Assembly (NCBI GenBank): GCA_965231015.1
Contig: OZ246408.1
Coordinates: forward strand, 211,755 to 275,754
Source of the DNA: an uncultured Gammaproteobacteria bacterium
Lineage (GTDB): Bacteria > Patescibacteriota > Patescibacteriia > UBA9934 > CAZDDW01
DNA: 64,000 nucleotides
Direction of reading: 5' to 3'
The notes under the pieces: generated by a model
The model's input: the letters and a program-made list of their open reading frames with translations, nothing else
The model's database searches: none
Told to the model about the DNA's origin: nothing
Shown: positions 31,704 to 50,441 of the stretch, piece after piece
Numbering within the stretch: the stretch's first letter is position 1
Layout of the letters: the number at the start of each line of letters is the position of its first letter
Position numbers and translations under genes: made by a program

Positions 31704-32045
31704 GACATTAGAACGTTCAAAGCACACCTCAAACATAATAGAGCCACGAGGAAATTGAAAGATTGAGACAACTGTTTAACTCGGTCCGCTAATTCCGGAT
31801 GGAATAAGTAAGTCGAGTTAGCCCCACGATTAAACGGTGCTCAGTTTTAAGCATAATTAAAGCCGGGTTCTGCTCCATGGTTCAGGGCGCGATCAGCAAG
31901 AGGGGAGTCTGCTGGTCGCCCATGAATCATTTTACTCCTACGTCTCCTTGGCTAAATCCTAACGGATTCCCCAAGCCAAGGAGGCGGTCGATCAGTGTTT
32001 GATCGAATTCGTCTCTTGTACCTTTCACAAGTTCAGGAGACAAAA

Positions 32046-33911
32046 ATGCAAAAGTTCATCACGGCTCTGGTGGTTTTTCTGGTGGCCGGCCTCACGCCGG
32101 CACCCATGGGATGTTCGGCGGGTTTCGATCCGGTCGATACCACCGCAACCACCGAAACCGGCGACCAGGGGGGTTACACCCCCACGGACGTGATCTACCC
32201 ACCCTTTGCCGCCGGCGAAGTCTACCAGTGCACGCAAGGCGTTGGCGGCAGCTATTCCCACAGCTCGGCCAGCACGTACGATGCCATCGACTTCGACACG
32301 CCCAACACCTACGACGTCGACGTGTACGCACCCTGTTCCGGCGTGGCGCGAGTGCATCATGACGCTTCGCCTTCTGGTTTCGGTATCCACGTCAACATCG
32401 ACCGCGGTGACGGAACCTACTGCTTGGTAGCACACCTCGCTGACGTGTTTGTGACCGATGGCGAGGACATCACACACGGTCAGTACATGGGCTTTGAGGG
32501 CTCAACCGGCTACAGCGACGGTGATCATGTGCACACGGCGTTGATGCAGGGTGACGCAAGCCAAATGGCTCAGTACGCCACCACGCTTCCGGTCAGCTTC
32601 TACGTCCGTGATGTCACTGCCGGTGGCGATTTCGCGGCCATTCCGGCCGAGGAATTCGTTTGCGGCATGAGCAACGGTCACTTCTACGAGTCCGGCCTGT
32701 CGGTCGCCAACTGGGTGCCTGATGGGACGCTCATGAAGTATCCGGGCGCAAGCGAAGTCTATGTGGTGGACGCCGATGAGCTCTACTGGATCGAAGACGA
32801 AGAGGTCTTCACAAGCTTCGGGTTTGAGATGAGCGAAATCGTGGCCATGGCCGAGATCACTTATTACGAGTGTCTGGGCGAGGCTTCGGACCTGATCGAT
32901 TGGACCACGGAGTACCGTGGGCTCATCGATGACGACGGCGTGACCTGGATCGCGTTCGAGCCGGCTGATGACCCGGGGCGGTTCCGCTTGCCAATTCAAC
33001 CCTACCAGGAAGAAGGCGCGGTCTTGACCATGATCGATTCCTGGGGGCTCCAGGGTGTCTATGGCATGTACCAGCAGGAGTCAGCCGAGCTCATCGAGTA
33101 CCCGATTGGCAACGGCTACGCGCTGTTGCGCGACGGAACGCTCGTCACCGAGCAGGGTGACTCGACCGTGTACGCGATTCACGAAGGTCTGGCTCTGCCG
33201 ATCGATTCATGGGACACGCTCGTGCTCATGGGTTTTTCCGAGCGTCGCGTTCACACCGTGCCCGAAGGAACGCTCGAGCAAATGGTGCTCGACGTTGGCA
33301 GTTGCTCGGCTGGGATCGGGTGCATTACCCGCGACGTGGTTACTGGCTGCGGAACCGGACTCGACCTGTCGCTCCTCGACACTGACCCGGACTGGGGCGG
33401 CATCGGGGACGATGACGTCGGGGACGACGATGATGTCTCGGATGACGATGACTCGGATCCGGGAGATGACGACGACACCGCAGACGACGATGACACCGGT
33501 GATGACGATGACGTCGGGGACGACGATGACGACGACACCATGGCTGACCCATGGATGTTGCTCGAAATCTATGCTGGGCTCACCGGCGCTCCGGCTGACT
33601 ACATCTGGCTCCAGGGTGAGCTCCTTGACGAGAATGGCCTGACGGCTGGCGGCGGTTTCTGGTGGGCCTCGCTCGGGATTGAGTACACGACCAACTCCAT
33701 TGAATGGAGCGCGTACGTGCAGCCCGACTGGACCTTCCGCTACTCCGTGGAATTCGAGCGCTATTCCGTAGTGGCCTGGTCCTGTTCCACTCCGTTCCCG
33801 CCCGGAACCTACAACATGGACCTCACGGCCATGGTCGATGGCACACCGATCATGATCGATCTCATCGACAACTACCTCGGCGGCTGTGAGCTCTGGATCG
33901 AGGTGCCGTGA
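32046..33911 (+). CDS. M23-family (LytM/lysostaphin-like) peptidoglycan endopeptidase lipoprotein with poly-Asp linker and C-terminal extra domain (GC-rich, likely acquired)
   Basis: Lipoprotein signal …LTPAPMGCS; M23 motifs HSSASTYDAIDF (Hx6D), VYAPCSGV, GDHVHTAL (HxH); linker DDDVGDDDDVSDDDDSDPGDDDDTADDDDTGDDDDVGDDDDDD; about 62 percent GC. Confidence 0.7.
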   Translation: MQKFITALVVFLVAGLTPAPMGCSAGFDPVDTTATTETGDQGGYTPTDVIYPPFAAGEVYQCTQGVGGSYSHSSASTYDAIDFDTPNTYDVDVYAPCSGVARVHHDASPSGFGIHVNIDRGDGTYCLVAHLADVFVTDGEDITHGQYMGFEGSTGYSDGDHVHTALMQGDASQMAQYATTLPVSFYVRDVTAGGDFAAIPAEEFVCGMSNGHFYESGLSVANWVPDGTLMKYPGASEVYVVDADELYWIEDEEVFTSFGFEMSEIVAMAEITYYECLGEASDLIDWTTEYRGLIDDDGVTWIAFEPADDPGRFRLPIQPYQEEGAVLTMIDSWGLQGVYGMYQQESAELIEYPIGNGYALLRDGTLVTEQGDSTVYAIHEGLALPIDSWDTLVLMGFSERRVHTVPEGTLEQMVLDVGSCSAGIGCITRDVVTGCGTGLDLSLLDTDPDWGGIGDDDVGDDDDVSDDDDSDPGDDDDTADDDDTGDDDDVGDDDDDDTMADPWMLLEIYAGLTGAPADYIWLQGELLDENGLTAGGGFWWASLGIEYTTNSIEWSAYVQPDWTFRYSVEFERYSVVAWSCSTPFPPGTYNMDLTAMVDGTPIMIDLIDNYLGGCELWIEVP

Positions 33912-34518: not shown

Positions 34519-37290
34519 ATGAAACGTTTTATAGAAGGGGTAAAAACCCAACTTTTTAAGCTTGCTACAGATCCGCGTAAACGATTTTTGCTGATCATTG
34601 CATTTGTCGCTATTTTTGCGATTTTTTTCGTTGCCGTAGATCCTGCTATGGCTGCTGATGAAAGCACAGACGACTTTGATTTCATGACCTGGCTCATGAC
34701 TCAAATGGCGCAGTGGTTATTAAACATTACACAAATAATCGGTCAGGTCATTGTGGCTTTGGTGGGAGTATTGGTTCAAATCATTCAATACAATGGTTTT
34801 TCCAATTCTCAAGTGATCGGTCTTGGTTGGGCTTTAGTGCGCGACACACTAAACATCGGATTCATTGCTGTGCTTATTTTGGTGGCTCTGGGAACGATTG
34901 TTTTTGGCGAAAGTGGAGCCGGGGGAAGATTCAACTGGCGAAAAAATCTCCCGAACATTGTTATTTTTGCCATTCTCATTAATTTCAGCCGGTTGTTTTG
35001 CGGGATCATGATTGATATCAGCAACGTGATCATGCTTACATTTGTCAACGGAATTAAAGATATTGCTGGTGGAAATATTATCCAACTCTTTGGGTTAAGT
35101 AGCATCATGAGTTTTAGTGAGAAATCCGTTCAGGCATCAATTGATGCAGGAACCGGGTTAACCGCTTTTTCCATGCTGGCCGCTTCCTTGCTCGCTTTGC
35201 TGATGATGTCCATTGTGCTTCTGACCATGATCACCATGATCGCCATGCTTGGAGCCCGGATCGTGATTTTGTGGGTTTTGGTAGTTCTTTCTCCGGCCGC
35301 ATTTTTTGCCGGAGCCGCCAAAAATGTATTACAGGGTCAAGCTATGAAGGTTTACAGTGATTGGTGGGCTAACTTCACTGGTGCTCTGGCCGTTGGTCCG
35401 ATTTTAGTATTTGTTTTATGGTTAGCTCTGGCCGTAGCCGGTTCCGGCAGTATTGCCAGCGAGTTTGCTGTGGACGGAGGTACCGAGGCTGATGCTTTTG
35501 TGTCTGACATTCCGAACCAGGTTTTTGAACGGGACAATCTTATCAGTTTTATAATTGGAATTTTAATCATGTTTGTCGGATTTGATATCGCGGTCAAGAC
35601 CGCTTCGGCGTTACCGGGCGGCTTTAAGAGTTTGGTTGGTCCCGGTTTGGCGGCTCGAGCTTTGCGAACTGCAGCTGTGACCACGGCGCGTGTGGGCTAC
35701 CGCGGCGCTCGTGGCGCGGCCGGACTTGGGGTTGGTGCTGCTGCCGGTGCTCTTCGAAAAGGTGGTCAAGCGGCTCGTTGGGGAGCCGGCCTTGCTGGTG
35801 GTGCTTTGGCAGAAAATATTCGTCTTAAACCTCCAACTTATGACGCAAAAACCGGAAAGCTGAAAGAGGGTGAAAAAGAGGTTCGTGTGAAAGACATCAA
35901 GGCTTATGCCGCGGATCAGTTAAAGGCCGCTGGTATGCGCGGAATTGCCAAGGGGGTTCCCGGAGCCGGTTATGTCACCCAGTATGCGGCTGAAGTTGGT
36001 GCGGCTGATCGAGGCAAAAAAGCTGCTTTACTTAATAATGCTATTGATAAACAAAAAGTGATGGGCAAGGATGAATTGTTGGCGATTGCCTCGAACCCTA
36101 ATCCGGCCATGAGTGCAGAAGAAAATGCCCGCCGCCAGGCCGCTCGTTATCAGTTGTTGACCCAGTTTAAACATAGGAAAGATCTAGACAGCAATCAGGT
36201 AAAGGCTCTGAAAACAGACTTTAATGAGGGTGGAGGTAAGGAACTTATTGAGGGAGATGAGAACAAAAAAGAGGCTATGCTCAAAGCCGGACACAAGCGT
36301 TTGGATATGTTCAAAGGCGATTGGCGCGACCCTGATTCTGATCTTGGTAAGGCGATTACCGGGCTTGAAGGAAAAGACTTTAAGGATCTTGATTCACAGG
36401 CTTTACAAGACCCTCGAATTCAAGAAATGCTCAAAGAAAAACAAATGTTTGTTAAGAGTGAGAACAGAGATATTCCAGTTTGGGATGCTTTGAAGAGAGT
36501 TGGAAAAGAAGCCCATAAGAGGGAGATTGCTTCTGTTGAATCTGGTGGTCAAAATTATGAGGATTTAGCCAAAGCTATGGGGCAACAGCAGGTTAATTTG
36601 CAGGCCAAAATTGAACAGTCTCCAGCTGGTGAGCGAGCTCAGTTGCGTGAGGAAATGGCTCGTATGCGCACAGCTCAAGCTGGGGCAACTCAAGATTTTA
36701 TTGAAAGAAACCCAGCCTTTCTGTCTCAGGCCAAAGCAACAGATCTGGCCGCCGGTGGTGGGGTTTTGGCTCAAAATGTAGCTGTTTCAGGAACCCCTCG
36801 TCAGATTAGGGATGCAACGGCTAGCGATGAAAAGCGAACTGAGTTTTTGTCGCAAACCAGTGAAGATCGCATGCGCGGTCTTGGTTATACCGACGATCAA
36901 GTGTTTGAGGCTCGAGCCGGCAGATTTATAGCGTCAGGCAGCTCAGACGATCTTGGACCAAGTGCTGAGCGGGGAGCGGTGATTCAGCGTGTTGTTGAGC
37001 GTGGTGGTCCGAAAGAAGTTAATAATTTGATTCAAGTTGCAAATTCTCAAGAAGGGGCGGCGGCTCAAGAAGCGGCTCGAATTGAAGTGGCTGAATCATT
37101 TGATAAGAGTAAGGTTGAATCAATTTTGAATGATTTCGAAACTGCAACCGGGGAACAAAAAGAACAGTTGCGCCAGAATCTTTCCGGTCTCAAAGAAACC
37201 TTCAGTCAGATTCGTGATGTAAATATGACCGGTGAGATGCAGGAGATTAAGAAGATGCTTGAGCTCAAGGACTACAAGTACGAAGGTTAA
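34519..37290 (+). CDS. polytopic membrane protein with long hydrophilic C-terminal extension; VirB6/TrbL-like candidate
   Basis: About 8 TM helices in the first 350 aa, then about 570 aa of charged/Ala-Gly-rich sequence; first gene of the T4SS-like run. Confidence 0.4.
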   Translation: MKRFIEGVKTQLFKLATDPRKRFLLIIAFVAIFAIFFVAVDPAMAADESTDDFDFMTWLMTQMAQWLLNITQIIGQVIVALVGVLVQIIQYNGFSNSQVIGLGWALVRDTLNIGFIAVLILVALGTIVFGESGAGGRFNWRKNLPNIVIFAILINFSRLFCGIMIDISNVIMLTFVNGIKDIAGGNIIQLFGLSSIMSFSEKSVQASIDAGTGLTAFSMLAASLLALLMMSIVLLTMITMIAMLGARIVILWVLVVLSPAAFFAGAAKNVLQGQAMKVYSDWWANFTGALAVGPILVFVLWLALAVAGSGSIASEFAVDGGTEADAFVSDIPNQVFERDNLISFIIGILIMFVGFDIAVKTASALPGGFKSLVGPGLAARALRTAAVTTARVGYRGARGAAGLGVGAAAGALRKGGQAARWGAGLAGGALAENIRLKPPTYDAKTGKLKEGEKEVRVKDIKAYAADQLKAAGMRGIAKGVPGAGYVTQYAAEVGAADRGKKAALLNNAIDKQKVMGKDELLAIASNPNPAMSAEENARRQAARYQLLTQFKHRKDLDSNQVKALKTDFNEGGGKELIEGDENKKEAMLKAGHKRLDMFKGDWRDPDSDLGKAITGLEGKDFKDLDSQALQDPRIQEMLKEKQMFVKSENRDIPVWDALKRVGKEAHKREIASVESGGQNYEDLAKAMGQQQVNLQAKIEQSPAGERAQLREEMARMRTAQAGATQDFIERNPAFLSQAKATDLAAGGGVLAQNVAVSGTPRQIRDATASDEKRTEFLSQTSEDRMRGLGYTDDQVFEARAGRFIASGSSDDLGPSAERGAVIQRVVERGGPKEVNNLIQVANSQEGAAAQEAARIEVAESFDKSKVESILNDFETATGEQKEQLRQNLSGLKETFSQIRDVNMTGEMQEIKKMLELKDYKYEG

Positions 37291-37299
37291 TAAACTATT

Positions 37300-39111
37300 A
37301 TGGATGACTTGGTCCAACTCGATAAGGATGTCCTTAAGTTCCTGAACAGTTATGATTTACTGTCCAGGATTCTTAAAGTTTTAGAAGAACACCAGCTTGA
37401 TGAAAGTGCGTATAAAAAAGTAGCACCGATCATTGACAGGATTGTGGACGCGCCTCAAAACATGAGCCGTCTACCAAGTGAGATCGGAAAAGTGCTTAAC
37501 CTAAATCAAGCTAAAGCCAAACGATTAGCAACGGATTTGGCCGGATTTTGGTTGTTGCCACTCGAGGCACACCTGGGTGATGTATCCGGGTTAATTGTGA
37601 AGTGGGGAGGTGATCTTAGCCGCTACCCAAAAGATACGGTGGCTAAAAAATCGATTAATCCAATGCAATTCACCCGTGAGACTTTGTCGACTCTAGGGGT
37701 GAAGATGGAAGAACCGGCCATGAAGAATAGGTTGGAATATGTTTTAAGTACTTTAGTGCGCGGTGTGCGAACTCCGGATGATGCCAAGCGAGTTATGGTA
37801 CGCGGTAAAAAGGTGGGTGGATTAGAAATGAGTAAAGAAGAAGCAGATAAATTGGTGGATCATTTTGTAGCCAAGATGGAGAACGTGGAGATTGATCGTG
37901 GGCCGGCTGTACCAGTTGATGGGGTGGAAACAAAAAAAGCACCACCGGTTAAAGAAAAACCAAGGCCGGAGGCGGTTAAAGAGATTCAGAAATTGAAAAA
38001 AACGGTCAAAACCAAAAAGAGAGAAGAAGATGAAAAGAAAAAGAAGCCTGAACCGACTCCTAAAAAATCACAACTCGAAGTCAAATCGAAAGCATCTTTT
38101 TCAGTAGAAACCTTTTCTGATGAAGATGAAACCGAGGTCAAGGCCGCGGCCAAAAAAATTGCCAAAGCTCCGTCCAGCCCGGTCTCGATTGAAAAAACAG
38201 TTGATAAAGTAATAAAAGAGGCCGGAATCAAGTTTAAGACTTTGGAGGGTGAAAAACGATTTAGGAAAATCGTAGAAACGCGCTTGCGTGACGTTCGTGA
38301 CGCGCTTGAAACACGCGATATTTTGGAAGACAAAGTTGAACAGGGTGGACTAGGTCTTCAGGGAGCTCGTTTGGCTGATGTCATAGAATTGATTGAAAGG
38401 GCTTATAATGATCATGCATCAAAGTTGGGTGAACAAAAAGCCAAAGAAAAGCAGAAATATTTGCAAAAACGAAAAGAAGCTGAGTCAGGGAAAGCTGACC
38501 TTGCCCGCGCCGAAGCCGATGTTTTAGCTAAGCGTTATGCCAGCCTGACCGGAAAAGCCCCATCACATCTTGTTACCCCGGCGGCTCCTACCGCGGCCAA
38601 GGTTAGCGCTTCCCGAGGAAGTGAAACGGATTTAAAGGAAGCAGCGTCAAAAATTGATCAGGACAAAGTTAAACGGGTCATGGCCAAACCAAGTCAGCCA
38701 GCACAAGCCGATGCACACCTGTCAGCGGCTAGTGTTGCTAAGCAATCAGGACAGAGACCGCAGGTGCAGGATGTGGCTCGGGCTCGGAAGCTGGTTGGTC
38801 CGATTGATGAACTCGGCAATATGAATACAGTTAGTTTTCGTCGGTTGTCGTCTGATCCGGACGAAGCGGTTTTAAAAATTAGGGATAAAATTGAACTTTT
38901 AGAAGCGGATTCTTACGCTAAGCGCTTAAAGGGAATCAAAGCTTGGCAGCAAAGTCCTTTATATAAGCTGTACTTGCAGGTGATGCGGGAGTCATTGGTG
39001 CGTGGTTTACAGGTTAAAGATATTGCCGGGGAAATTGGGTCAGCTGAACAGGCTTTAAAGCCCGAAGAGGTGCAAAGTATCCGAAAACTGAACAAACAGC
39101 TAAAATTTTGA
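37300..39111 (+). CDS. hypothetical protein with Lys/Pro-rich low-complexity middle region (T4SS-associated)
   Basis: 603 aa, no TM; KKAPPVKEKPRPE…KKKKPEPTPKK region. Confidence 0.35.
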   Translation: MDDLVQLDKDVLKFLNSYDLLSRILKVLEEHQLDESAYKKVAPIIDRIVDAPQNMSRLPSEIGKVLNLNQAKAKRLATDLAGFWLLPLEAHLGDVSGLIVKWGGDLSRYPKDTVAKKSINPMQFTRETLSTLGVKMEEPAMKNRLEYVLSTLVRGVRTPDDAKRVMVRGKKVGGLEMSKEEADKLVDHFVAKMENVEIDRGPAVPVDGVETKKAPPVKEKPRPEAVKEIQKLKKTVKTKKREEDEKKKKPEPTPKKSQLEVKSKASFSVETFSDEDETEVKAAAKKIAKAPSSPVSIEKTVDKVIKEAGIKFKTLEGEKRFRKIVETRLRDVRDALETRDILEDKVEQGGLGLQGARLADVIELIERAYNDHASKLGEQKAKEKQKYLQKRKEAESGKADLARAEADVLAKRYASLTGKAPSHLVTPAAPTAAKVSASRGSETDLKEAASKIDQDKVKRVMAKPSQPAQADAHLSAASVAKQSGQRPQVQDVARARKLVGPIDELGNMNTVSFRRLSSDPDEAVLKIRDKIELLEADSYAKRLKGIKAWQQSPLYKLYLQVMRESLVRGLQVKDIAGEIGSAEQALKPEEVQSIRKLNKQLKF

Positions 39112-39123
39112 TAGAATACACTC

Positions 39124-39552
39124 ATGGATCAGTTTGTGGTTCCACAATTTATCGACGTTGAAGACAAGATTATCGGGCCTGTTTCGACCCGACAGTTTAT
39201 TTTAATGCTCTTTCCATTGTTAATTGGAGCGCTTTTCTGGAAACTTTTTACCTTGATGTATTTCATTATTTTTATCATTCCGGTCCTGATTATTTTCGGA
39301 TTACTGGCTTTTTTCAAGATCAACGGTATGCCGTTACACTTTTTCTTGTTAAATTTGATACAAAGTTTGCGCAAGCCGCGACTCCGTGTTTGGGACAAGT
39401 CTTTAACGGATGCTGAGTTAAGAGAAAGAATAAAGAAAGAAGAAGCTCCACCTCCACCTGCTCCATTACGTAAAGAACCAATTAGCTCAAGCCGTTTACA
39501 CGAGTTGACGTTGGTTGTGAACACCGGTGGAGTGTATCAACCTGAAGAATAA
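39124..39552 (+). CDS. PrgI/TcpE-family small membrane protein (VirB3 analogue)
   Basis: VVPQFIDVEDKIIGPVSTRQFILMLFP matches the PrgI-family N-terminus; 2 TM; directly precedes VirB4. Confidence 0.55.
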   Translation: MDQFVVPQFIDVEDKIIGPVSTRQFILMLFPLLIGALFWKLFTLMYFIIFIIPVLIIFGLLAFFKINGMPLHFFLLNLIQSLRKPRLRVWDKSLTDAELRERIKKEEAPPPPAPLRKEPISSSRLHELTLVVNTGGVYQPEE

Positions 39553-39554
39553 TT

Positions 39555-40235
39555 ATGGCCAAGAAAAAATTAGCAAAACCAAAACCAGGACCTGCTACCC
39601 AACGTTATCTTGATATTTCCGAGGTCCGTGAGGATGTGGTCGTGATGAAGGATGGAACTATGCGAGCCGTGATTTTGGTTTCCAGCATTAACTTCGCCTT
39701 AAAGTCAGAAGATGAACAAATTGCCATTGTCCAGGCTTACATGTCTTTTTTGAATGGTTTAGATTATCCCCTGCAGGTTGTGGTGCAATCACGACGCATG
39801 AACATTGACTCGTATCTGACTTCCTTAAGAGAGAGATCTCGCGAAACTCTGAACGAAGCCTTGCGTGGGCAAATCAATGATTATCTGAGCTTTATTGAAG
39901 AATTAGTTACTTTAGGAGAGGTAATGCAAAAGCAGTTTTTTGTGGTCGTGCCATTTGATCCGACAACCGACAAGAAACGTAATTTTTGGCAGCGTTTAAG
40001 CGCGGCTGTTTCACCCGCTGTGCGAATTAAACTAAAGGACAAAGAGTTCAAAGAACGTCGGGATGATCTATTACGTCGCGCTGATTTGACGCTTGGCCAG
40101 CTAACGAGTATGGGTCTTTCCGGAACAGTGCTTGATACCCAAGGATTGATTGAACTTTATTACACAGTTTATAATCCTGACGTTTTTGATAAGGAGCGCA
40201 TGGTTGATTTAAACAAATTGAGAGTTGAACAATAA
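39555..40235 (+). CDS. VirB4/TraC-like N-terminal domain encoded as a separate ORF
   Basis: YLDISEVREDVVVMKDGTMRAVILVSSINFALKSEDEQIAIVQAYMSFLNGLDYPLQVVVQS is the typical Gram-positive VirB4 N-terminus; ends 2 nt before the next ATG. Confidence 0.55.
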   Translation: MAKKKLAKPKPGPATQRYLDISEVREDVVVMKDGTMRAVILVSSINFALKSEDEQIAIVQAYMSFLNGLDYPLQVVVQSRRMNIDSYLTSLRERSRETLNEALRGQINDYLSFIEELVTLGEVMQKQFFVVVPFDPTTDKKRNFWQRLSAAVSPAVRIKLKDKEFKERRDDLLRRADLTLGQLTSMGLSGTVLDTQGLIELYYTVYNPDVFDKERMVDLNKLRVEQ

Positions 40236-40237
40236 TT

Positions 40238-42166
40238 ATGGCCATTGAATTAGGAAAAATTGGTAAGGCTACTCCGGCCCCACCGCCCAAAGAACAAAAA
40301 CCGCCATCAAAAGAAAAGCAACAGGCGGCTGAAGAGAGAAAATCTCTTGAGGAAGAGAGGATTTATGCCAAGGGTGTGACTTCAGTGCGTGACTTGGTGG
40401 CTCCGGCTTCTTTTGAAGTATTCCCAACCTATCTGAGATTAAGCGGGGTTTATTTACGTACTCTGTTTGTGGTTAATTATCCACGCTACATTAGTTTAGG
40501 TTGGTCAGCGCCGATTATCAACCTTAACAACACCATGGACATAGCCATGTTTTTCTACCCGGTCAAGTCAGAAATCATTTTGAAACAATTGCGTAAGAAA
40601 GTCGGAGTGCTTGAAGCGGGAATCATGACGGATGCGGAAAAAGGAAAGCCACGTGACCCGATCAGGGAAACGGCCTTGCGCGACATTGAAAAATTACGAG
40701 ACGATTTAACACAGGGTATTGAACACTTTTTCCAGTTTGCTTTTTATATAACCATTTACGCCTCAAGTGAGGATGATCTTGAAAAGAAAACTGAAGAAAT
40801 TGAATCGATCTTTGGATCTAAGTTGATCTATTCCAAGAAAGGTTTTTATCAGGCTGAACAAGGGTTTAATTCAACCCTGCCTATTGGCAATGATGAGCTC
40901 ATGATCAGCTTTAACATGAATACCTCACCGATTGCCTCCTCTTTTCCTTTTATTAGCTCAGACCTGACTTCGGATAACGGAATTTTGTATGGAATTAACC
41001 GGCATAATAACAGTTTGATTTTGTTCGAACGGTTTAGTTTGCAAAATGCTAACTTTGTGGTTTTTGCCACTTCAGGTGCCGGAAAGAGTTATGCTATCAA
41101 GCTTGAAATTTTACGCTCTCTCATGCTGGGAGTGGACGTAATTGTGATTGATCCGGAAATGGAGTACAAACGGTTGTCCGACGCTGTGGGTGGTACCTAC
41201 ATCAACATTTCTTTGGCATCTGAATCTAAGGTGAACCCATTTGACCTTCCGCGACCAACCGGGGAGGGGGTTAAGGTAGATGATATTATTCGTTCCGCGG
41301 TTATCACTCTCAAAGGTCTTCTCAAAATCATGATCGGAATGCCGGTGGGAGAACAGGGAAAGCTTGGTTTTACTCCGGAGGAGGATTCGCTGTTGGATCG
41401 AGCCTTGTTAGAAACATATGCCAAAAAAGACATCACGGCCGATTTGGTGGATCTAACCAATATTGAACCACCGACCATGCAGGATTTGCAGGATATTTTA
41501 GAGGGAATGGAAGGAACAGAAAATTTGGTTGCTCGACTCAAAAAATATACAGAAGGTACTTTTTCCGGATTGATCAATTCTCCAACCACCGTTGAGATGA
41601 ATAATCAGCTTGTTACTTTCTCAGTCCGCGATTTGGAGGACGAATTAAGGCCAACCGCGATTTATACCATCGTTAACTACGTTTGGAACGTGGTGCGAAG
41701 TGAACGAAAGAAGCGAATTCTCGTAATTGACGAGGCCTGGTGGTTGATGCAGCACGAAGACTCAGCTAAGTTTATTTTCGCTCTTGTTAAACGTTGTCGT
41801 AAGTATTACCTCGGAGTAACCACCATTACCCAGGACGTCAACGACTTCCTTCGTTCCCCGTACGGTCAGGCTATTGTGACGAACTCAGCGCTCCAGCTAT
41901 TAATGAAGCAGTCTCCGGCCGGAGTTGATATTGTGCAAAAGACATTCAATCTGACTGACAGTGAAAAATATCTCTTGCTAGAATCCGGGGTGGGAGAAGG
42001 TATTTTCTTTGCCGGCCCAAAACATGCCGCAATTAAAGTGGTTGCTTCCTATACCGAGGATCAGATCATTACCACAGATCCACGACAACTATTAGAGATA
42101 GAAAAAGAAAAGCAGGAGTTGGAAGAAGAGCTGGCCAAGCAAGAGGGAGCTGAATCATCAACTTAA
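40238..42166 (+). CDS. VirB4/TraC-like conjugative ATPase (middle plus ATPase domains)
   Basis: Walker A ATSGAGKSYAIK, Walker B ILVIDEAWWLM, motif VTTITQDV. Confidence 0.8.
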   Translation: MAIELGKIGKATPAPPPKEQKPPSKEKQQAAEERKSLEEERIYAKGVTSVRDLVAPASFEVFPTYLRLSGVYLRTLFVVNYPRYISLGWSAPIINLNNTMDIAMFFYPVKSEIILKQLRKKVGVLEAGIMTDAEKGKPRDPIRETALRDIEKLRDDLTQGIEHFFQFAFYITIYASSEDDLEKKTEEIESIFGSKLIYSKKGFYQAEQGFNSTLPIGNDELMISFNMNTSPIASSFPFISSDLTSDNGILYGINRHNNSLILFERFSLQNANFVVFATSGAGKSYAIKLEILRSLMLGVDVIVIDPEMEYKRLSDAVGGTYINISLASESKVNPFDLPRPTGEGVKVDDIIRSAVITLKGLLKIMIGMPVGEQGKLGFTPEEDSLLDRALLETYAKKDITADLVDLTNIEPPTMQDLQDILEGMEGTENLVARLKKYTEGTFSGLINSPTTVEMNNQLVTFSVRDLEDELRPTAIYTIVNYVWNVVRSERKKRILVIDEAWWLMQHEDSAKFIFALVKRCRKYYLGVTTITQDVNDFLRSPYGQAIVTNSALQLLMKQSPAGVDIVQKTFNLTDSEKYLLLESGVGEGIFFAGPKHAAIKVVASYTEDQIITTDPRQLLEIEKEKQELEEELAKQEGAESST

Positions 42167-42176
42167 CAATAAATAT

Positions 42177-42740
42177 ATGAGCCGACGCATCAAAATAATT
42201 TTAGCTATTCTGATTATAGTGTTGATATTATTAGCGTTGTTTTTATTGTGGTGGAATATTTGGCGACCCCAACCAGCTCCGACCACTGTTGTAGTTGTTG
42301 AAACCGAAGAGGAGGAGGTTAGCTCACCGTTTGCAATTCCGCCGATCGCGGAGTTGGATCAACGTACCGACGAAGAAATTTCTGTGGAAACTCTGGCTAA
42401 AACATTTGCTGAACGCTATGGTAGTTATTCTAACGAAAGTAATTTTGCTAATTTAGATGATTTGGAACCATTGATGACAGATAGTTTAGCCAGTGAATTG
42501 GCTGTAATGGTTGCTAATACAGATATCTCAGACATGTATTATGGAATTACTACGCAAGTAGTATCAATGAACATTATCAGCATTGATGAAACATCCGGAA
42601 CCGCTTCAATTAGTGTTTTAACACAACGTGAAGAAGCCGTTGGGGGCCCAACCAATACTGAAGTTAGTTACGAAACATTGGTTTTAGACATGGTGAAAGT
42701 TAGTGGAGTGTGGAAAGTAGACGGTGTAACATGGCAATAA
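42177..42740 (+). CDS. bitopic membrane protein, possible VirB8-like (NTF2-like) component
   Basis: Single N-terminal TM, 150-aa extracytoplasmic domain ending …VKVSGVWKVDGVTWQ; position after VirB4. Confidence 0.3.
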   Translation: MSRRIKIILAILIIVLILLALFLLWWNIWRPQPAPTTVVVVETEEEEVSSPFAIPPIAELDQRTDEEISVETLAKTFAERYGSYSNESNFANLDDLEPLMTDSLASELAVMVANTDISDMYYGITTQVVSMNIISIDETSGTASISVLTQREEAVGGPTNTEVSYETLVLDMVKVSGVWKVDGVTWQ

Positions 42741-43982: not shown

Positions 43983-44072
<90 letters not shown>

Positions 44073-44120
44073 GTTTTCTTTTATTGGAGCTAAAAACAGG
44101 CTTTAGGCCTATTTTCAACT

Positions 44121-44210
<90 letters not shown>

Positions 44211-44266: not shown

Positions 44267-44788
44267 ATGTTAAAGAACAAAAAAGAGGAAAACCAGGAAG
44301 AAATAGAGGATATCGGGGTGGGTCAGCCACTTTTAGCTTGGGAAGTGGATGAATATGAGCGTCACGACCGTGGTATTCAGTGGTATGTTGTTTCAATAAT
44401 TATTGGAACAGCTTTGATTATTTATGCTTTAGCCACAGCCAATTTCATGTTTGCCGTCATTATTATTATGGTGGGGGTGATTTTATTTTTAACCGGCATG
44501 AAGCATCCAAAACGTATCCCTGTTGTTTTGATTGACAACGGATTGTTGATTGGGGAAGTTTTTCACCCTTTCCGCATGATGCGTGACTTCTCAGTGATCT
44601 ATGATCCCCCAGAGGTTAAAGTGTTGTATATTGATTTCCACAGCGTTTGGCGACCGCTTATGTCGATTCCGCTTAAGGATACTGATCCGGTAGTGGTGCG
44701 AGAATGTTTAATGCCGTTTGTAGTTGAAAATTTAAATCGCAACGAAGAGAGCTTGACAGATCTGGTGTCTAGACTGTATAAGTTATAA
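44267..44788 (+). CDS. 2-TM membrane protein, hypothetical
   Basis: 173-aa ORF with two adjacent hydrophobic helices. Confidence 0.4.
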   Translation: MLKNKKEENQEEIEDIGVGQPLLAWEVDEYERHDRGIQWYVVSIIIGTALIIYALATANFMFAVIIIMVGVILFLTGMKHPKRIPVVLIDNGLLIGEVFHPFRMMRDFSVIYDPPEVKVLYIDFHSVWRPLMSIPLKDTDPVVVRECLMPFVVENLNRNEESLTDLVSRLYKL

Positions 44789-44921: not shown

Positions 44922-44998
44922 GCACCCGTAGCTCAGCCGGATAGAGCGTCAGCTTGCGGAGCTGAAGGCCGCACGTTCGAGTCGTGCCGGGTGCGCCA
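44922..44998 (+). tRNA. tRNA-Arg (anticodon GCG), CCA encoded
   Basis: GCACCCGTAGCTCAGCCGGATAGAGCGTCAGCTTGCGGAGCTGAAGGCCGCACGTTCGAGTCGTGCCGGGTGCGCCA; anticodon loop TTGCGGA. Confidence 0.8.
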
Positions 44999-45091: not shown

Positions 45092-47143
45092 ATGATTTTT
45101 CTCGACAACAAAGTAACAACTTTACCTGGAATTGGGCCGGTAGTGGCCAAGGATTTTAAGAAACTTGAAATTATCACCATTCGAGATCTTTTGTTGTATT
45201 TTCCGTTTCGGTATGAAGATTTGTCAAAAGTTAGCTCGATTGAGGATTTGGTCCCCGATGAAGTAGCGACCGTGCAGGGTCGGGTGGTAAATATGAAAGC
45301 GCGGCGTTCGTCTCGGAAACGGATGATGCTGACCGAGGGAATCGTGGAGGATGATACTGGTCGAATAAAAGTTGTCTGGTTTAATCAGCCATACTTGGCT
45401 AAGAGTTTTCGTCCCGGAATCCAGGTGTCATTATCTGGGCGGGTTGATGATAAATATGGTTTGTCACTTGTGAATCCGATTTATGAGATTTTGAAGTCGA
45501 ACGAGACCGTGCATACGGGTCGCATCGTTCCCGTGTATCCGCTTACCGGATCGTTAACTGGCAAACGGCTTCGGAACGCGATTCATACGTCTTTGAAAGC
45601 GGCAGGACAAATGGAGGACTGGTTACCCGATGAGTTGCTCGACAACGAGGACTTTTTAGATTTACCAACCTCGATTAGAACGATTCATTATCCGAGTGTC
45701 CTAGAAGAGCTCGAAGCGGCTATCCGACGGATGAAGTTTGATGAACTGTTTTTGCATCAACTAATGTTTGCTCGGGCTCGTGAGGAACAAGCAAGCTTGC
45801 CAGCCCATGCAATGAATAGAGATAAGAAGGCCGAAAATAGGTTTAAGAAATCGTTTCCGTTTGATTTAACCAAGGCCCAGGATCGCTCAGTGGACGAGAT
45901 TCTTAATGATCTTACTCATGACAATCCCATGAACCGATTACTCGAAGGAGACGTTGGTTCAGGTAAGAGTGCGGTAGCGGCGTGTGCTTTGGAAGCTTGT
46001 GCCCGAGCAATGTTTCAGGCAGCATATTTAGCCCCGACCGAGATATTGGCCAAGCAACAGTATGAAGAAATGAAAAAGGTGCTATCTGACTATCGAGTTG
46101 CTTTGCTCACTAGATCAGAATTTCGAATCTCAGATTCAGATCAAGTATCCAAGGATGAAATAAAAGATGAGTTGAGCTCGGGTAAAATTGATGTTGTAGT
46201 AGCAACCCATGCATTACTCCAAGATGGATACAAGTTTTCAAAACTTGGTCTACTCGTGATTGATGAGCAGCACCGGTTTGGGGTTAAGCAACGTCAGGAG
46301 TTGATTGCGCGATCAGGTGATACTGCACCGCATTTGCTTTCAATGTCAGCCACGCCAATTCCTCGTTCGCTCGCCTTGTCGGTTTACGGGGACTTAGATC
46401 TATCAATTTTGGATGAGCTTCCCGCAGGGCGAAAACCAATCGATACTAAGATTGTGACCAGTAAAAACATGTCGAGCGCCATCAAGCTCATGGATGTCTC
46501 GATTAAAAATGGTCAGCAGGTTTACGCGGTATGTCCTTTGATCGATCCATCCGACAAACTTGGAGCTACTTCTGTAACTGAGTTTTCGGACGAATTGAAA
46601 TCTGGACCGCTCAAGAAGCACCGCATCGAGATTTTGCATGGCAAGCTCAAAACCGCAGATAAGCAGGATGTAATTGATCGGTTTGTGGCCGGAGCAATCG
46701 ACATCCTGGTCTCGACCACTGTGGTTGAAGTCGGGGTGAACGTCCCAAATGCCACAGTGATGTATATCGAGGGGGCTGATCGGTTCGGGTTGGCACAGTT
46801 GCACCAGCTCCGCGGTCGGGTGGGACGGTCAGATTTGAAATCGTTCTGTCTTTTGCATACCGAATCGTCCTCGGGAAAAGCACCCGAGCGTTTAGAGGCC
46901 ATGGTAAAAAGCCAAGATGGTTTTGAGTTGGCTGAGAAAGATCTCGAACTTCGCGGGGCAGGGAATATTTTTGGCACCGCTCAATCTGGTTTTGCTGACT
47001 TTAAACTCGCGACTTTGGCTGACGTGGACATAATGAAAAAAGCCCGGGATTGGGCTCAAAAAGTAATGAATAAAGGTTTGAAGAAGTACCCTGGAATATC
47101 AGATCGACTGGAAGCAGAATATCACGAAGTTCATTTTGAATAA
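45092..47143 (+). CDS. recG: ATP-dependent DNA helicase RecG
   Basis: N-terminal wedge domain; helicase motifs GDVGSGKS, DEQHRFG, TATPIPRSL, HQLRGRVGR. Confidence 0.85.
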   Translation: MIFLDNKVTTLPGIGPVVAKDFKKLEIITIRDLLLYFPFRYEDLSKVSSIEDLVPDEVATVQGRVVNMKARRSSRKRMMLTEGIVEDDTGRIKVVWFNQPYLAKSFRPGIQVSLSGRVDDKYGLSLVNPIYEILKSNETVHTGRIVPVYPLTGSLTGKRLRNAIHTSLKAAGQMEDWLPDELLDNEDFLDLPTSIRTIHYPSVLEELEAAIRRMKFDELFLHQLMFARAREEQASLPAHAMNRDKKAENRFKKSFPFDLTKAQDRSVDEILNDLTHDNPMNRLLEGDVGSGKSAVAACALEACARAMFQAAYLAPTEILAKQQYEEMKKVLSDYRVALLTRSEFRISDSDQVSKDEIKDELSSGKIDVVVATHALLQDGYKFSKLGLLVIDEQHRFGVKQRQELIARSGDTAPHLLSMSATPIPRSLALSVYGDLDLSILDELPAGRKPIDTKIVTSKNMSSAIKLMDVSIKNGQQVYAVCPLIDPSDKLGATSVTEFSDELKSGPLKKHRIEILHGKLKTADKQDVIDRFVAGAIDILVSTTVVEVGVNVPNATVMYIEGADRFGLAQLHQLRGRVGRSDLKSFCLLHTESSSGKAPERLEAMVKSQDGFELAEKDLELRGAGNIFGTAQSGFADFKLATLADVDIMKKARDWAQKVMNKGLKKYPGISDRLEAEYHEVHFE

Positions 47144-48460
47144 TTAAAGTTCGGAAACAGTTTTTATGGCTCGGGTTTCAAAATCCGGGATTTTTGTTTT
47201 TGTTCGTTCTGGAATCCAGACTGCGTTCATACCAAGTCGAGCAGCTTCTTTGAGTCGACGTTCAGCAAAAGACACACTCCGCACTTCACCACCCAAACCA
47301 ACCTCACCAAAAATAATGGTTCCAGGTTCGACTTGCTGATTTTTTACCGCTCCAACAATAGCCGCAGCTACTGCCAGGTCGGCGGCCGGTTCGTCTAAGC
47401 TCAGTCCACCAATCACGTTAATGAATACGTCTGACTCACTAAGTTTTAATCCGGCTCGTTTAGATAATATGGCGCAGAGCATCTGTAGCCGGTTGGTGTC
47501 GAACCCAGAAGCCTTACGCACCGGAGTTCCATAAAAAGATTTATCAACTAAAGCCTGAACTTCAACAAGGAAGACTCGTGACCCCTCGACAGTGGCAGTG
47601 ACGACTGAACCCGGAGAGTTGCTACGCTCGGCTAAAAATCGTTCGGATGGATTTTCAATGGCGACCAAGCCGAGTTCATTCATTTCAAACACGCCAATCT
47701 CATCGGCAGAACCAAATCGGTTTTTGGTGGCGCGTAGAATACGCGTGGCATGCACAGGGTCGCCTTCTAAACTTAAAACCACGTCCACCAAATGTTCAAG
47801 AGTCTTGGGTCCGGCCACAGATCCGTCTTTAGTTACTTGTCCAACAATCAAAATCGGTAGGTCATTTTTTTTGGCGAGCTCTACGAGCATAGCTGTGGCT
47901 GCCCGGACCATGTTAGGCAAACCAGCCGTACTTTCGATCTCACTCGAGGTCAATGTTTGAGCTGAATCAACAATGAGTAGAGCCGGCATGGCTTTTTGAG
48001 CGGTAGCCACGACTCGTCCGACATCGGTTTCTCCAAGGTAGGCGATTTGGTCGGGTTTTATTGAGAGCCGCTGCAAACGTCCGGCCAATTGTCCGGCTGA
48101 CTCTTCACCGGAAGCATATATTATTTGTCCGGACATCTGGCCGGCAATTTGAGCAACGAGCGTTGACTTACCGATTCCCGGTTCACCGGCAATTAAAACT
48201 ACGGCTCCGGGCATAATTCCGCCTCCAAGAACACGATCTACTTCAGAAATTCCGGTCGCAGATCTGACTTGTGAGCTCGAGTCAATGGTCAAGGATTCCA
48301 GATCGCCGGGCGAATAGCCATTCGCTCCTACGCCTTTTTTCTTCTTCAAAGACAAAGCCGGTGCGGAATCATCCTCCCGCACCGTGCCCCAGGCCCCACA
48401 TTCGGTACATCGCCCGGCCCACTTAGCAAATTGTGCGTCACATTTTGAACAACAGAACAT
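47144..48460 (-). CDS. radA: DNA repair protein RadA/Sms
   Basis: N-terminal C4 zinc finger CSKCDAQFAKWAGRCTECGAW; RecA-like Walker A GEPGIGKST; KNRFG motif; Lon-like C-terminal domain. Confidence 0.85.
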   Translation of the reverse strand: MFCCSKCDAQFAKWAGRCTECGAWGTVREDDSAPALSLKKKKGVGANGYSPGDLESLTIDSSSQVRSATGISEVDRVLGGGIMPGAVVLIAGEPGIGKSTLVAQIAGQMSGQIIYASGEESAGQLAGRLQRLSIKPDQIAYLGETDVGRVVATAQKAMPALLIVDSAQTLTSSEIESTAGLPNMVRAATAMLVELAKKNDLPILIVGQVTKDGSVAGPKTLEHLVDVVLSLEGDPVHATRILRATKNRFGSADEIGVFEMNELGLVAIENPSERFLAERSNSPGSVVTATVEGSRVFLVEVQALVDKSFYGTPVRKASGFDTNRLQMLCAILSKRAGLKLSESDVFINVIGGLSLDEPAADLAVAAAIVGAVKNQQVEPGTIIFGEVGLGGEVRSVSFAERRLKEAARLGMNAVWIPERTKTKIPDFETRAIKTVSEL

Positions 48461-48463
48461 AAG

Positions 48464-49786
48464 CTAATTACATGGTGGAGCGGTATAACATGATTGAGTA
48501 GTGTTGTTTCCCGGTGTTGTTTGGAAATGCCAAATTTCTCCAGTGTAACGCAACCAACCGGCACTGTACATAATTTCTGCCAGTAAACGAACTGCTTCCG
48601 GATCAGCACTTGATTGACTACTATAGGAAACATTCCAAGAAAGATCTCCATCGCTGTCGCGGTATTTGATATCGACTGCAGTACCGGTTCCGTGAGCAGA
48701 AGTGCCTGGCCAAGCCACGGCTGAAGGAACTCCGCTCATATTTTTACAAGCCAATTCAAGTTGTCTGGCCAATGATCGGTAGGTTCCTATCACTACCAAG
48801 GTGACATTTTCTTCGCGTGCTCGATCTGCAGCTTGCAACAAAGCATCCAACGCGTCAGGGGTTAAGTAATGACCGGCCGAGGCTTCGAGTCCTGGGTAAT
48901 CCGTTGGCACAGATTCAAGCTCACTTGGACTGGTCATGCCTTCAGTTTTTAGACCCGGAACAAGTGCTTCTAAAGCATCAGTATCGGTTCCGTTAGCTGT
49001 ATCGTTGCAAAAATCTCGGCACTCATCGTGGGTGCTACACAATTTTGAGGCTCCGGAAGAATAGGTGGCGTCATATTCCTCTTCGTTTTGGATGGGTTGA
49101 AAGGGAACATTTCTTACAGACAGGGTTTCAAAACTGGTTAAGCCAGGCGAGACAGTGTTTAAGATAACGTAACTTCCAAGCAAAATAACAAAACCGATTA
49201 CAGCCGACCTGATGCGTTCTTTAGCCTTTTGTACCTCCCCGGTGCCCTTACCGATCATGTACTGAACCCCACCGATCATAATCACCACGGTGGCCACAAT
49301 TACCCCAGCCCCAATCAACCATGTGTACCAAGCGTTAACATATTCACCCAGCAGATTGATTTTTAAGTTGTCACCCTCTTGTAAAATTTCAGAAAAACTG
49401 AAGTTGGGAATCTCAACGTTTAAGATAGGGATAATCGGCGGGGCGAGCGGAGGTGCTTCTTCTGTGATTTTGTTTAGTGCGACTAGAGCAGCATCAGCTT
49501 GGTCATTAGTGTATTCACATGCTGCTTCTTGTTCATCTAGATCAGCTTGTTGGGGCCATAAATAAGTTAAAGGGTCATACTTGTCTCCGTAATAGGTTTG
49601 ACAAATGCTTTTACATTCAGCATCGTCTGAAATATTTTGTTGTGTTTTTATGGATAAAGGAAAACACTGAAGAACCTCCTGGTCATTAACATAACAGAAA
49701 CATTGGCTGGAATCATAAGCAAAAACAAAAGCCGGTAAAATGATTCCTGTCAGCAGGATTAGACCGATGATGAATTTATTCTTCAT
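48464..49786 (-). CDS. secreted Cys-rich protein fusing a VirB2/TrbC pilin-like membrane hairpin to a C-terminal M15 (VanY-like D,D-carboxypeptidase) domain
   Basis: Signal peptide; WLIGAGVIVATVVIMIGGVQYMIGKGTGEVQKAKERIRSAVIGFVILLGSYVIL (two hydrophobic helices around a charged loop); M15 motifs TYRSLARQ, SAHGTGTAVDI, EIWHF. Confidence 0.55.
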   Translation of the reverse strand: MKNKFIIGLILLTGIILPAFVFAYDSSQCFCYVNDQEVLQCFPLSIKTQQNISDDAECKSICQTYYGDKYDPLTYLWPQQADLDEQEAACEYTNDQADAALVALNKITEEAPPLAPPIIPILNVEIPNFSFSEILQEGDNLKINLLGEYVNAWYTWLIGAGVIVATVVIMIGGVQYMIGKGTGEVQKAKERIRSAVIGFVILLGSYVILNTVSPGLTSFETLSVRNVPFQPIQNEEEYDATYSSGASKLCSTHDECRDFCNDTANGTDTDALEALVPGLKTEGMTSPSELESVPTDYPGLEASAGHYLTPDALDALLQAADRAREENVTLVVIGTYRSLARQLELACKNMSGVPSAVAWPGTSAHGTGTAVDIKYRDSDGDLSWNVSYSSQSSADPEAVRLLAEIMYSAGWLRYTGEIWHFQTTPGNNTTQSCYTAPPCN

Positions 49787-50441
49787 AACGAGTCAGTTCA
49801 AGTAATAATTCACGGACGCGTAATTCGAGTTCAGTTGTCGTCATAGAGCCGGTGTAAGAGAATTCATTGATGAAGATGGTTGGAGTAGCGACTAGATTCA
49901 AACGTAGAGCTTCTTCATAAGTGCGTTGTACAAGGGGCAAAGTTTCATTGTTTTCGTAACACTCTGAAAAAGCCTCTCTGTCAAGTTCCAGATAGTCAGC
50001 TAAGCTGTAAAAAAAGTTACGGCTGATTTGATTTTGATTTGCGTACAAAAGGTCATGGTATTCCCAAAATTTACCCTGGTTGCCCGCGCAGTATGAAGCT
50101 ACAGCGGCCGGAGTAGCCATTTCATTGGCTCCATCGTTCGGGACGGCTTTGTAAATATGCCGAACATCGTTAGGTAATAGCTGTTGAATGTAGAGAATAG
50201 ATTCAGCCATTTCTTGGCAAGCCGAACAAGTAAAATCGGTATATTCAACAATAGTGATGGTGGCGTCAGTTGGACCACGAGACGGATCAATGTAGGTGAT
50301 CACCGGTTCGCTAAGGATTGTCTGATCCTCTTCTGAATCATTAGAAGTTTGAGGTGGGCGAGTGGCTATGTAGAAACTAGCCAAGACTAAACCGGTTAAA
50401 ATCAGTACAGCTACCCAGGCAATAATGCGTTTGTGTCCCAT
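49776..50441 (-). CDS. DsbA-like thiol:disulfide oxidoreductase, membrane anchored
   Basis: N-terminal TM; thioredoxin CxxC motif FTCSACQ. Confidence 0.65.
   Translation of the reverse strand: MGHKRIIAWVAVLILTGLVLASFYIATRPPQTSNDSEEDQTILSEPVITYIDPSRGPTDATITIVEYTDFTCSACQEMAESILYIQQLLPNDVRHIYKAVPNDGANEMATPAAVASYCAGNQGKFWEYHDLLYANQNQISRNFFYSLADYLELDREAFSECYENNETLPLVQRTYEEALRLNLVATPTIFINEFSYTGSMTTTELELRVRELLLELTRYEE

Follow-up and report, generated by a model that had tools for sequence, protein, structure and literature searches.

Why would a helical hairpin of the kind found in pilins of type IV secretion systems (T4SSs) sit on the same polypeptide as an enzyme that trims peptidoglycan? The question is raised by one gene on the reverse strand of a 64-kb stretch of Patescibacterial DNA (contig OZ246408.1, positions 211,755 to 275,754; hereafter the window). 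A sequence-only reading had predicted for this gene a 440-amino-acid (aa) product with a Cys-rich N-terminal region, a pilin-like hairpin and an M15 (VanY-like) peptidase domain. The open reading frame (ORF) is as described there, and translation returned all the motifs that had been quoted (Table 1). We show here that the product has the make-up of a secreted, membrane-tethered, extracytoplasmic M15B peptidase whose predicted tether is a hairpin of a pilin family. We further propose, with a probability of roughly one half, that this hairpin would bring the enzyme to the platform where the T4SS and its pilins are assembled, so that the wall is remodelled locally, a coupling to the T4SS that we infer.

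Layout of the fusion protein and its peptidase domain

From its N-terminus the pre-protein is made up of a Sec-type signal peptide, an acidic domain whose six Cys residues are spread over aa 29-90 (the Cys-rich region of the earlier description), a conserved pre-hairpin segment, the hairpin, an acidic linker and the peptidase domain. The signal peptide and the two-helix hairpin were predicted with a hydropathy/charge script, and the -3/-1 rule was applied by eye; the hydropathy peaks, given as centres of the sliding frame, lay at aa 11-18, 159-171 and 200-205. The stretch KGTGEVQKAKER (aa 179-190) forms part of the hairpin loop and is flanked by the two hydrophobic helices, the flanks of the hairpin are acidic, and all 12 Cys residues fall outside it. 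Since the basic loop is predicted to lie inside, both flanking domains would be extracytoplasmic; by the positive-inside rule the N- and C-terminal domains would thus be on the wall side and the loop in the cytoplasm. This heuristic topology is consistent with the helices of an AlphaFold2 model built on a 9-sequence alignment, in which the hairpin consists of two long helices (aa 145-178 and 182-212) with a per-residue confidence (pLDDT) of about 60-67. The N-domain was poorly modelled, with low pLDDT, and gave no match in Pfam and PDB profile searches; it is common to paralogues that carry other enzymes (P0009, P0010).

The same fusion was found elsewhere. An identical protein is on record in NCBI and Logan assemblies, and seven orthologues with 36-81% identity have the same domain layout. 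As full-length copies, both identical and orthologous, were present in independent assemblies, the fusion is not the result of a frameshift or of an assembly artefact, and a chance match was ruled out as well.

The assignment of the C-terminal part to the M15/VanY enzymes held at profile thresholds. In Pfam, VanY (PF02557) matched aa 306-414 with 43.3 bits against a curated cutoff of 25 (E 4e-11), and this M15B domain was the sole wall-enzyme domain of the protein, no SLT/muramidase or CHAP/NlpC domain being present. The best PDB match by sequence profile was LdcB/YodJ of B. subtilis (4ox3, E 1.1e-10), and the active-site motifs of the two proteins line up. The domain was well modelled (pLDDT 70-95), and Foldseek with the model against PDB placed VanX (1r44) first and the B. 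anthracis LdcB (4mph/4jid) and LdcB 4ox3 next (E 3.5e-5 to 2.6e-4), VanY also being among the top matches. None of the five active-site residues known from LAS enzymes varies among the nine aligned sequences (R337 as substrate Arg, H365, D372 and H420 as Zn ligands, E417 as catalytic Glu), and the peptidase is therefore very probably active. By sequence it appears closer to LdcB than to VanY, and it should remove the terminal D-Ala from the stem peptides (tetra- or pentapeptides) of peptidoglycan.

With LdcB (YodJ 4ox3; B. anthracis 4mph/4jid) and VanY (5hnm) the target shares the fold as well as the catalytic and Zn-binding residues (R, H-x6-D, ExxH), and like them it would be an extracytoplasmic, membrane-tethered zinc carboxypeptidase of the M15B type in the LAS superfamily. 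The tethers differ, however: LdcB and VanY have a single N-terminal helix or a lipid anchor, whereas the target has, in the middle of the protein and after a Cys-rich domain, a two-helix hairpin of a pilin family. This kinship brings in a first alternative, in which the protein would be a housekeeping LdcB/VanY carboxypeptidase for peptidoglycan maturation or recycling, with a tether borrowed from an abundant pilin family and no link to a T4SS. The fact that VanY and LdcB enzymes are normally membrane- or lipid-anchored fits such a role.

The hairpin module and its family

Is the hairpin a member of a pilin family or a mere anchor? The earlier description of it as pilin-like stood as far as family membership goes. 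T4SS_pilin (PF18895) matched aa 148-210 with 40.3 bits against a cutoff of 26.6 (E 3.3e-10) and was covered from position 7 to 69 of its 71 positions, which argues against a generic anchor. The next hairpin match, TrbC/VirB2 (PF04956), stayed below threshold (19.6 bits against 27.9, E 1e-3), as did the NCBIfam Mbov_0395 family of pilin-like conjugal transfer proteins (E 2.8e-6), so that the three top profile matches of the hairpin are all pilin families. Moreover, a profile made from fusion proteins only recovered the tandem arrays of short pilins that lie beside virB4 in Saccharibacteria, with E values of about 1e-5 to 1e-19, mostly 1e-8 to 1e-18. Since the short and the long class have the consensus AVxMIIxGGxQY...AKxxIxxAxIGLV in common, the fused hairpin is, by sequence, homologous to the T4SS-linked short pilins.

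A resemblance to conjugative pilins of solved structure did not emerge. Helical hairpins are too simple for the comparisons in question, in which the hairpin profile found nothing significant among PDB sequences (only HtrII hairpins), Foldseek with the full model found no pilin, and all Foldseek matches of a hairpin-only model had E values of 0.6 or more, none of the top 50 being a pilin. "Pilin-like" therefore stands here for PF18895 membership together with genomic associations, and the formation of a pilus is no part of the claim; in the literature we found no demonstration of pilus polymerisation by any Patescibacterial pilin.

We then considered how the regions of the protein are conserved, measured as mean pairwise identity among eight orthologues. 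Conservation is highest in the two helices of the hairpin (TM1, 72%; TM2, 74%; TM for transmembrane), followed by the peptidase (58%), the pre-hairpin segment (56%), the loop (52%), the linker (44%), the signal peptide (29%) and the N-domain, which is the least conserved (28%). Seven residues of the hairpin region (Y154, G172, G173, Y176, G198, Y206 and P214) are invariant in the alignment. A generic tether would be expected to vary like the signal peptide; the hairpin is instead under the strongest constraint of all regions, which argues for specific protein-protein contacts within the membrane. This also speaks against the housekeeping alternative, since a segment that only tethers should not outrank all others in conservation, at this level of identity and with seven invariant residues.

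The motifs on either side of the hairpin call for another explanation to be weighed, namely that the protein might be a pro-pilin polyprotein, cleaved near PIIPxLNV upstream and TVNPxLTxFE downstream to free a mature pilin and a peptidase. These motifs are short, strongly conserved and placed directly before and after the hairpin, and it is established that TrbC/VirB2 maturation trims both ends of the pilin. They are, however, missing from the short pilins, the pre-hairpin segment being specific to the long fusion proteins; in addition, neither a protease site nor, in the window, a TraF-like peptidase came to light, and we regard such processing as very improbable.

The closest relatives outside the fusions are the VirB2-like pilins of Patescibacteria (for example the SEML1_0014-0019 array of Ca. 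Southlakia epibionticum and the "Sec-secreted array" of TM7x), with which the target shares the hairpin family, the motif and the signal peptide. Their genes are near virB4, and the target is 6.3 kb from virB4. These pilins are stand-alone proteins of 93-175 aa, hypervariable and encoded in tandem arrays, whereas the target, with 440 aa, has three domains, a highly conserved hairpin and the extra pre-hairpin segment.

How far does the hairpin module extend beyond this locus? A profile with 119 positions, derived from 10 fusion proteins, was run on 1.84 billion cluster representatives; 58,021 of them matched at E<=1e-3, and 217 still did so at E<=1e-30. The best 150 matches are 234-916 aa long and usually carry the module at about aa 100-230, and 96 of these 150 fall in five wall-enzyme classes (local jackhmmer classification). 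In the top 109 module-bearing proteins, Pfam recognised T4SS_pilin in all but one (108/109) and, as enzyme heads, NlpC/P60 (13), VanY (12), Peptidase_M15 (9), M23 (9), M15_4 (8), SLT (7), C39_2 (7), 3D (2), C70 (2), Amidase_2 (1) and Glucosaminidase (1); five of the 109 also match PF04956 TrbC/VirB2, with E values down to 5.4e-11. With the full-length target as query, a word-indexed homologue search returned 13 relatives; the 118-aa hairpin fragment alone gave no match in such a search, which we took as a limitation of the tool, and the exhaustive profile search was used instead. As tblastn of the module against 72,556 plasmids gave no match, the module does not seem to be a recognisable component of plasmid T4SSs at tblastn sensitivity.

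Some relatives carry several hairpins, from two to eight in the four proteins mentioned here. P0129 (820 aa) has eight T4SS_pilin hairpins in tandem and passes the TrbC/VirB2 cutoff with 51.2 bits, P0020 (552 aa) has six, P0025 is likewise a "poly-pilin" membrane protein with tandem hairpins, and P0014 has hairpins and an SLT domain on one polypeptide.

Scanning the GTDB species representatives, which do not include the window's own genome, with the module gave 79 loci. Almost all of these bear Patescibacterial titles (Uhrbacteria, Parcubacteria, Saccharibacteria, Nomurabacteria, Paceibacteria, WWE3, Gracilibacteria, Zambryskiibacteria); the others are a few titled only "bacterium" and four titled "uncultured Gammaproteobacteria". 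The loci L013, L019, L025 and L028 are typical Patescibacterial loci in third-party annotation (TPA) records of metagenome-assembled genomes titled "uncultured Gammaproteobacteria bacterium", and these labels are probably wrong.

Thirty of the 79 loci contain short pilins (93-175 aa) in tandem, three to eight per array, that match the hairpin part of the profile only, and VirB4, PrgI and TraC-like genes lie within 10 kb in 20 of these 30. A further 45 loci are long fusions, with virB4 within 10 kb in 19 of them and at a distance of 12 bp to about 1.7 kb in 17. In the six gene maps inspected, the order was VirB6-like, PrgI, TraC-like, VirB4, (one gene), fusion, the fusion being downstream of virB4 and co-directional with it. 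Ten virB4-adjacent fusions were scanned for their heads, which were YkuD (three), VanY (L039, and L056 by jackhmmer), SLT or SLT_3, or not recognised. That many family members lie within T4SS operons is a second point against a purely housekeeping role.

Hairpin-enzyme fusions are a large, widespread modular family in Patescibacteria, and many of its members are T4SS-operon genes. The fusion had been thought unusual, and so it is relative to classical T4SSs, but not within Patescibacteria. Neither of the two works found to mention PF18895 describes a hairpin-enzyme fusion. Set against T4SS biology as described so far the architecture is new, but it is common within Patescibacteria and already implicit in database domain tables.

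The gene neighbourhood and a slot with interchangeable heads

In the window the fusion gene is preceded on the same strand by genes for ClpB, an unknown protein, a beta-propeller protein and a DsbA-like thioredoxin, and it ends 3 nt before radA. This order was kept in every orthologue locus inspected. The DsbA-like gene and the fusion gene share 11 nt at the stop of the one and the start of the other; the two genes are translationally coupled, and the DsbA-like protein probably oxidises the 12 extracytoplasmic Cys residues of the fusion. At L017, L020, L027, L028, L029, L031 and L033 a DsbA-like gene also lies directly upstream (0-175 bp) of hairpin-fusion paralogues that are away from radA and from any T4SS, which suggests a recurrent pairing of a DsbA gene with a gene for a Cys-rich hairpin protein. 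A fusion of the DsbA domain itself to the hairpin, considered for the loci with a computed distance of 0, was rejected, the genes merely abutting.

This setting is where the housekeeping alternative is strongest. The operon and its neighbours include ClpB, DsbA, RadA, HtpX, LemA, RseP and GlmM, a peptidoglycan-precursor enzyme (HtpX, LemA, GlmM and RseP all being encoded close to the fusion gene); synteny is conserved most tightly with DsbA and RadA and not with virB4; and several fusion loci per genome are away from any T4SS gene.

The enzyme head in the slot between DsbA and RadA, in contrast, varies from genome to genome. It is VanY in the window and in L001, L003, L012, L014 and L025; M15_4 in L013, L015 and L022; M23 in L016, L021, L023, L024 and L026; SLT-like in L008 and L019; and VanY plus NlpC/P60 in tandem in L005. 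Such swapping at one and the same locus would be odd for a dedicated housekeeping enzyme, and with the conservation of the hairpin and the family members in T4SS operons it leads us to consider the housekeeping role somewhat unlikely.

A conserved N-terminal module with interchangeable, sometimes tandem, C-terminal enzymes at one syntenic slot brings to mind a quite different use, in which the hairpin would load the enzyme into or onto a T4SS pilus and the enzymes would act on the wall of the host where epibiont and host touch. Polymorphic toxins likewise have a conserved delivery domain and variable enzyme heads, and in the Xanthomonas X-Tfe effectors and the Tae/Tge/Tlde1 effectors of the type VI secretion system (T6SS), too, a conserved delivery module is joined to swappable wall-enzyme heads with overlapping folds. 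M15, M23, NlpC/P60, SLT and YkuD together match the repertoire of known anti-bacterial wall effectors of T4SSs and T6SSs, and the variable, Cys-rich N-domain would suit such a role. So would the finding that the T4SS and its pilins are essential for epibiotic growth in Ca. Southlakia epibionticum, where the PF18895 pilins SEML1_0014-0019 are among the essential genes (PMC10633639).

Against this stands that no immunity-like gene follows the fusion, radA being next, whereas X-Tfe and T6SS effectors differ from the target in this respect and also in their delivery module, which in the target is an integral-membrane hairpin, its delivery being hypothetical. The predicted topology would bring the enzyme first before the cell's own wall, about 350 globular residues per subunit would be hard to fit in a VirB2-type filament as judged from published pilus architectures, and no pilus has been seen in these organisms. 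We therefore hold a host-directed effector to be unlikely. Its most explicit version, in which the VirB4 machinery that pulls pilins from the membrane would also extract the fusions, display them on a T4SS filament or at its tip and so bring swappable enzymes to the host wall, seems a shade less likely again; if true, such a pilus-borne polymorphic effector system could account for the need of T4SS and pilins in epibiotic life.

The T4SS genes themselves lie on the other side of radA and on the opposite strand (Table 1). The cluster (34519-43468) is a complete-looking one of the Patescibacterial type; no coupling protein and no relaxase were recognised among the scanned ORFs. In the window, virB4 and the fusion are 6.3 kb or about 8 genes apart, in separate operons, with recG, three tRNA genes and comF between the T4SS cluster and the fusion/radA side. 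At L001, L007, L016 and L024, VirB4, TraC-like and PrgI genes are 6.5-7.7 kb from the fusion. T4SS loci of the ABY1 class typically come with comF, recG and radA (Quinonero-Coronel et al., PMC12102498), and the window matches this published arrangement, the fusion gene abutting radA. L001, L007, L016 and L024 have this larger gene order in common with the window. Judged by its nearest relatives and by synteny, the window probably comes from an organism of the Ca. Uhrbacteria/ABY1 type. No second PF18895-type ORF was found in the 64 kb, either with our own hidden Markov model (HMM) on all six-frame ORFs or with Pfam on 18 small or membrane ORFs, so that the fusion is single copy in the window and not part of a tandem array.

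Table 1. Features of the window, with coordinates, strand and remarks
Feature	Coordinates	Strand	Remarks
N-anchored Peptidase_M23 protein	31995..33911	+	638 aa; M23 44.2 bits; N-terminal hydrophobic segment; no hairpin; upstream of T4SS cluster
T4SS gene cluster	34519..42740	+	VirB6-like to 187-aa N-anchored protein
VirB6-like candidate, polytopic	34519-37290	+	923 aa; about 7-8 TM segments
Unknown soluble protein of T4SS cluster		+	603 aa; between VirB6-like and PrgI/VirB3
PrgI/VirB3	39124-39552	+	
TraC-like	39555-40235	+	226 aa; orthologues match TraC-like family
VirB4-like ATPase	40238-42166	+	
N-anchored protein		+	187 aa; last gene of T4SS cluster
ComF	42710-43468	+	after T4SS cluster
RecG	45092-47143		after ComF
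radA	47144..48460	-	downstream operon partner
Fusion gene	48464..49786	-	440-aa pre-protein; ATG start; stop codon 48464-48466
Signal peptide, Sec-type	49718..49786	-	aa 1-23; MKNK, hydrophobic core, VFA|YD
Acidic N-domain, six Cys	49448..49717	-	aa 24-113; CxC...C...CxxxC...C
Pre-hairpin segment, conserved	49346..49447	-	aa 114-147; PIIPxLNVxIPxFSF...INLLG
VirB2-like helical hairpin (PF18895 T4SS_pilin)	49148..49345	-	aa 148-213
Hairpin loop IGKGTGEVQKAKERIRS	49205..49255	-	net +3; predicted cytoplasmic (positive-inside rule)
Acidic linker	48887..49147	-	aa 214-300; conserved TVxPxLTxFE motif; CxxxxxCxxxC cluster
LAS-superfamily M15B (VanY/LdcB-like) zinc peptidase domain	48512..48886	-	aa 301-425
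YRSLARQ motif with R337	about 48764-48784	-	upstream of SAHGTGTAVD
SAHGTGTAVD motif	48671..48700	-	aa 363-372; Zn ligands H365, D372
EIWHF motif	48524..48538	-	aa 417-421; catalytic E417, Zn ligand H420
DsbA-like thioredoxin	49776..50441	-	Thioredoxin_4 80.7 bits; N-terminal hydrophobic segment

The M23 protein upstream of the cluster is a second T4SS-proximal wall hydrolase. Its segment has 59.5% GC against about 45% for the genome, with long overlapping ORFs on both strands, and may have been horizontally acquired; a weak IS200-like match (E 0.0036) was seen at 33990-34316. A second GC-rich stretch (55.4% GC) with overlapping ORFs on both strands occupies positions 1-2000 and holds a gene for orotidine monophosphate (OMP) decarboxylase (67-846) and a 251-aa ORF without a family match. 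Between the T4SS/comF block and recG are two adjacent tRNA-Ser genes (anticodons TGA and GCT; 43983-44210, reverse strand) and a tRNA-Arg gene (44922-44998, forward strand), with a 173-aa membrane ORF without a family match between them (44267-44788). A giant forward ORF of 3190 aa (17693-27265), whose sole Pfam match is a CBM_4_9 carbohydrate-binding domain (29.1 bits), probably encodes a surface or adhesin-type protein. At L001, a 138-aa protein of the 23S_rRNA_IVP family is encoded between the TraC-like gene and virB4 (19951-20367); it is missing from the window.

A proposed wall enzyme for the T4SS platform

How could the hairpin serve a T4SS? After cleavage of the signal peptide, the VirB2-type hairpin would be embedded in the cytoplasmic membrane, its basic loop on the inner side, and the disulfide-rich N-domain and the C-terminal peptidase would both face the cell wall. 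The hairpin would then dock the enzyme at the VirB3/VirB4/VirB6 platform that handles the short pilins, or co-assemble it with this platform, and the wall would thereby be remodelled where the T4SS or pilus crosses it. Two observations lead us to propose that the hairpin is more than an anchor: no other part of the protein is as conserved, and it is homologous to the short pilins whose genes lie next to virB4. The family would in this way be the Patescibacterial functional counterpart of the T4SS hydrolases of the VirB1/PrgK/TraG type, with interchangeable enzyme heads.

VirB1, PrgK (pCF10), TraG (pIP501), TcpG and CwlT are membrane-anchored peptidoglycan enzymes associated with T4SSs, as the target family is proposed to be, and the SLT, glucosaminidase and NlpC/P60 heads found in the family resemble theirs. 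They differ from the target in that they have simple TM-helix anchors and cleave glycan or act as endopeptidases, whereas the target has a carboxypeptidase-type domain and is encoded outside the T4SS operon. Genes of the VirB1/PrgK/TraG/TcpG class are placed in the operon; the target is not, but relatives at 17 loci are.

Among Patescibacteria, SEML1_0007 of Ca. Southlakia epibionticum offers a comparison. It has 1113 aa, is encoded directly downstream of the VirB4-like SEML1_0008 and is essential (Wang et al., PMC10633639), and its C-terminus is a Hedgehog/DD-peptidase (LAS) domain with M15B structural neighbours (PMC10633639 supplementary tables). It shares with the target the Patescibacterial T4SS locus and the LAS domain, but is far larger and has no PF18895 match in the table of PMC10633639. 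SEML1_0006, with two lysozyme-like domains plus a cysteine proteinase, is essential as well (PMC10633639). A survey of Patescibacterial T4SSs found VirB2-like pilins in 1,948 assemblies, and VirB1 was not recognisable in most (PMC12102498). Published surveys place VirB2-like pilins in most Patescibacterial genomes and a hydrolase of the VirB1 type only rarely. The Patescibacterial T4SS is essential for epibiotic growth, and reviews call its function unknown.

Several observations weigh against a T4SS-linked enzyme and keep our estimate where it is. The target gene is outside the T4SS operon and belongs to a convergent operon whose other genes serve the envelope and proteostasis (ClpB, DsbA, RadA); L003 has no T4SS gene within 10 kb, and several paralogous fusions are next to a DsbA gene, with T4SS genes out of reach. 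To these are added the lack of any shown sequence or fold similarity to a solved conjugative pilin and the fact that a physical interaction with the T4SS is something we infer from sequence and gene context. Finally, LdcB and VanY are ordinary housekeeping enzymes and not lytic, so that an enzyme of this kind alone would not open a hole in the wall.

The fusion family is nonetheless a concrete candidate for the missing wall-remodelling component of the Patescibacterial T4SS, or for an effector. One consequence is that HMM-based counts of "VirB2 pilins" in Patescibacteria include multidomain enzymes. The conserved hairpin is, moreover, a specific module that can be mutated, and its role would be testable in the genetically tractable Saccharibacteria.

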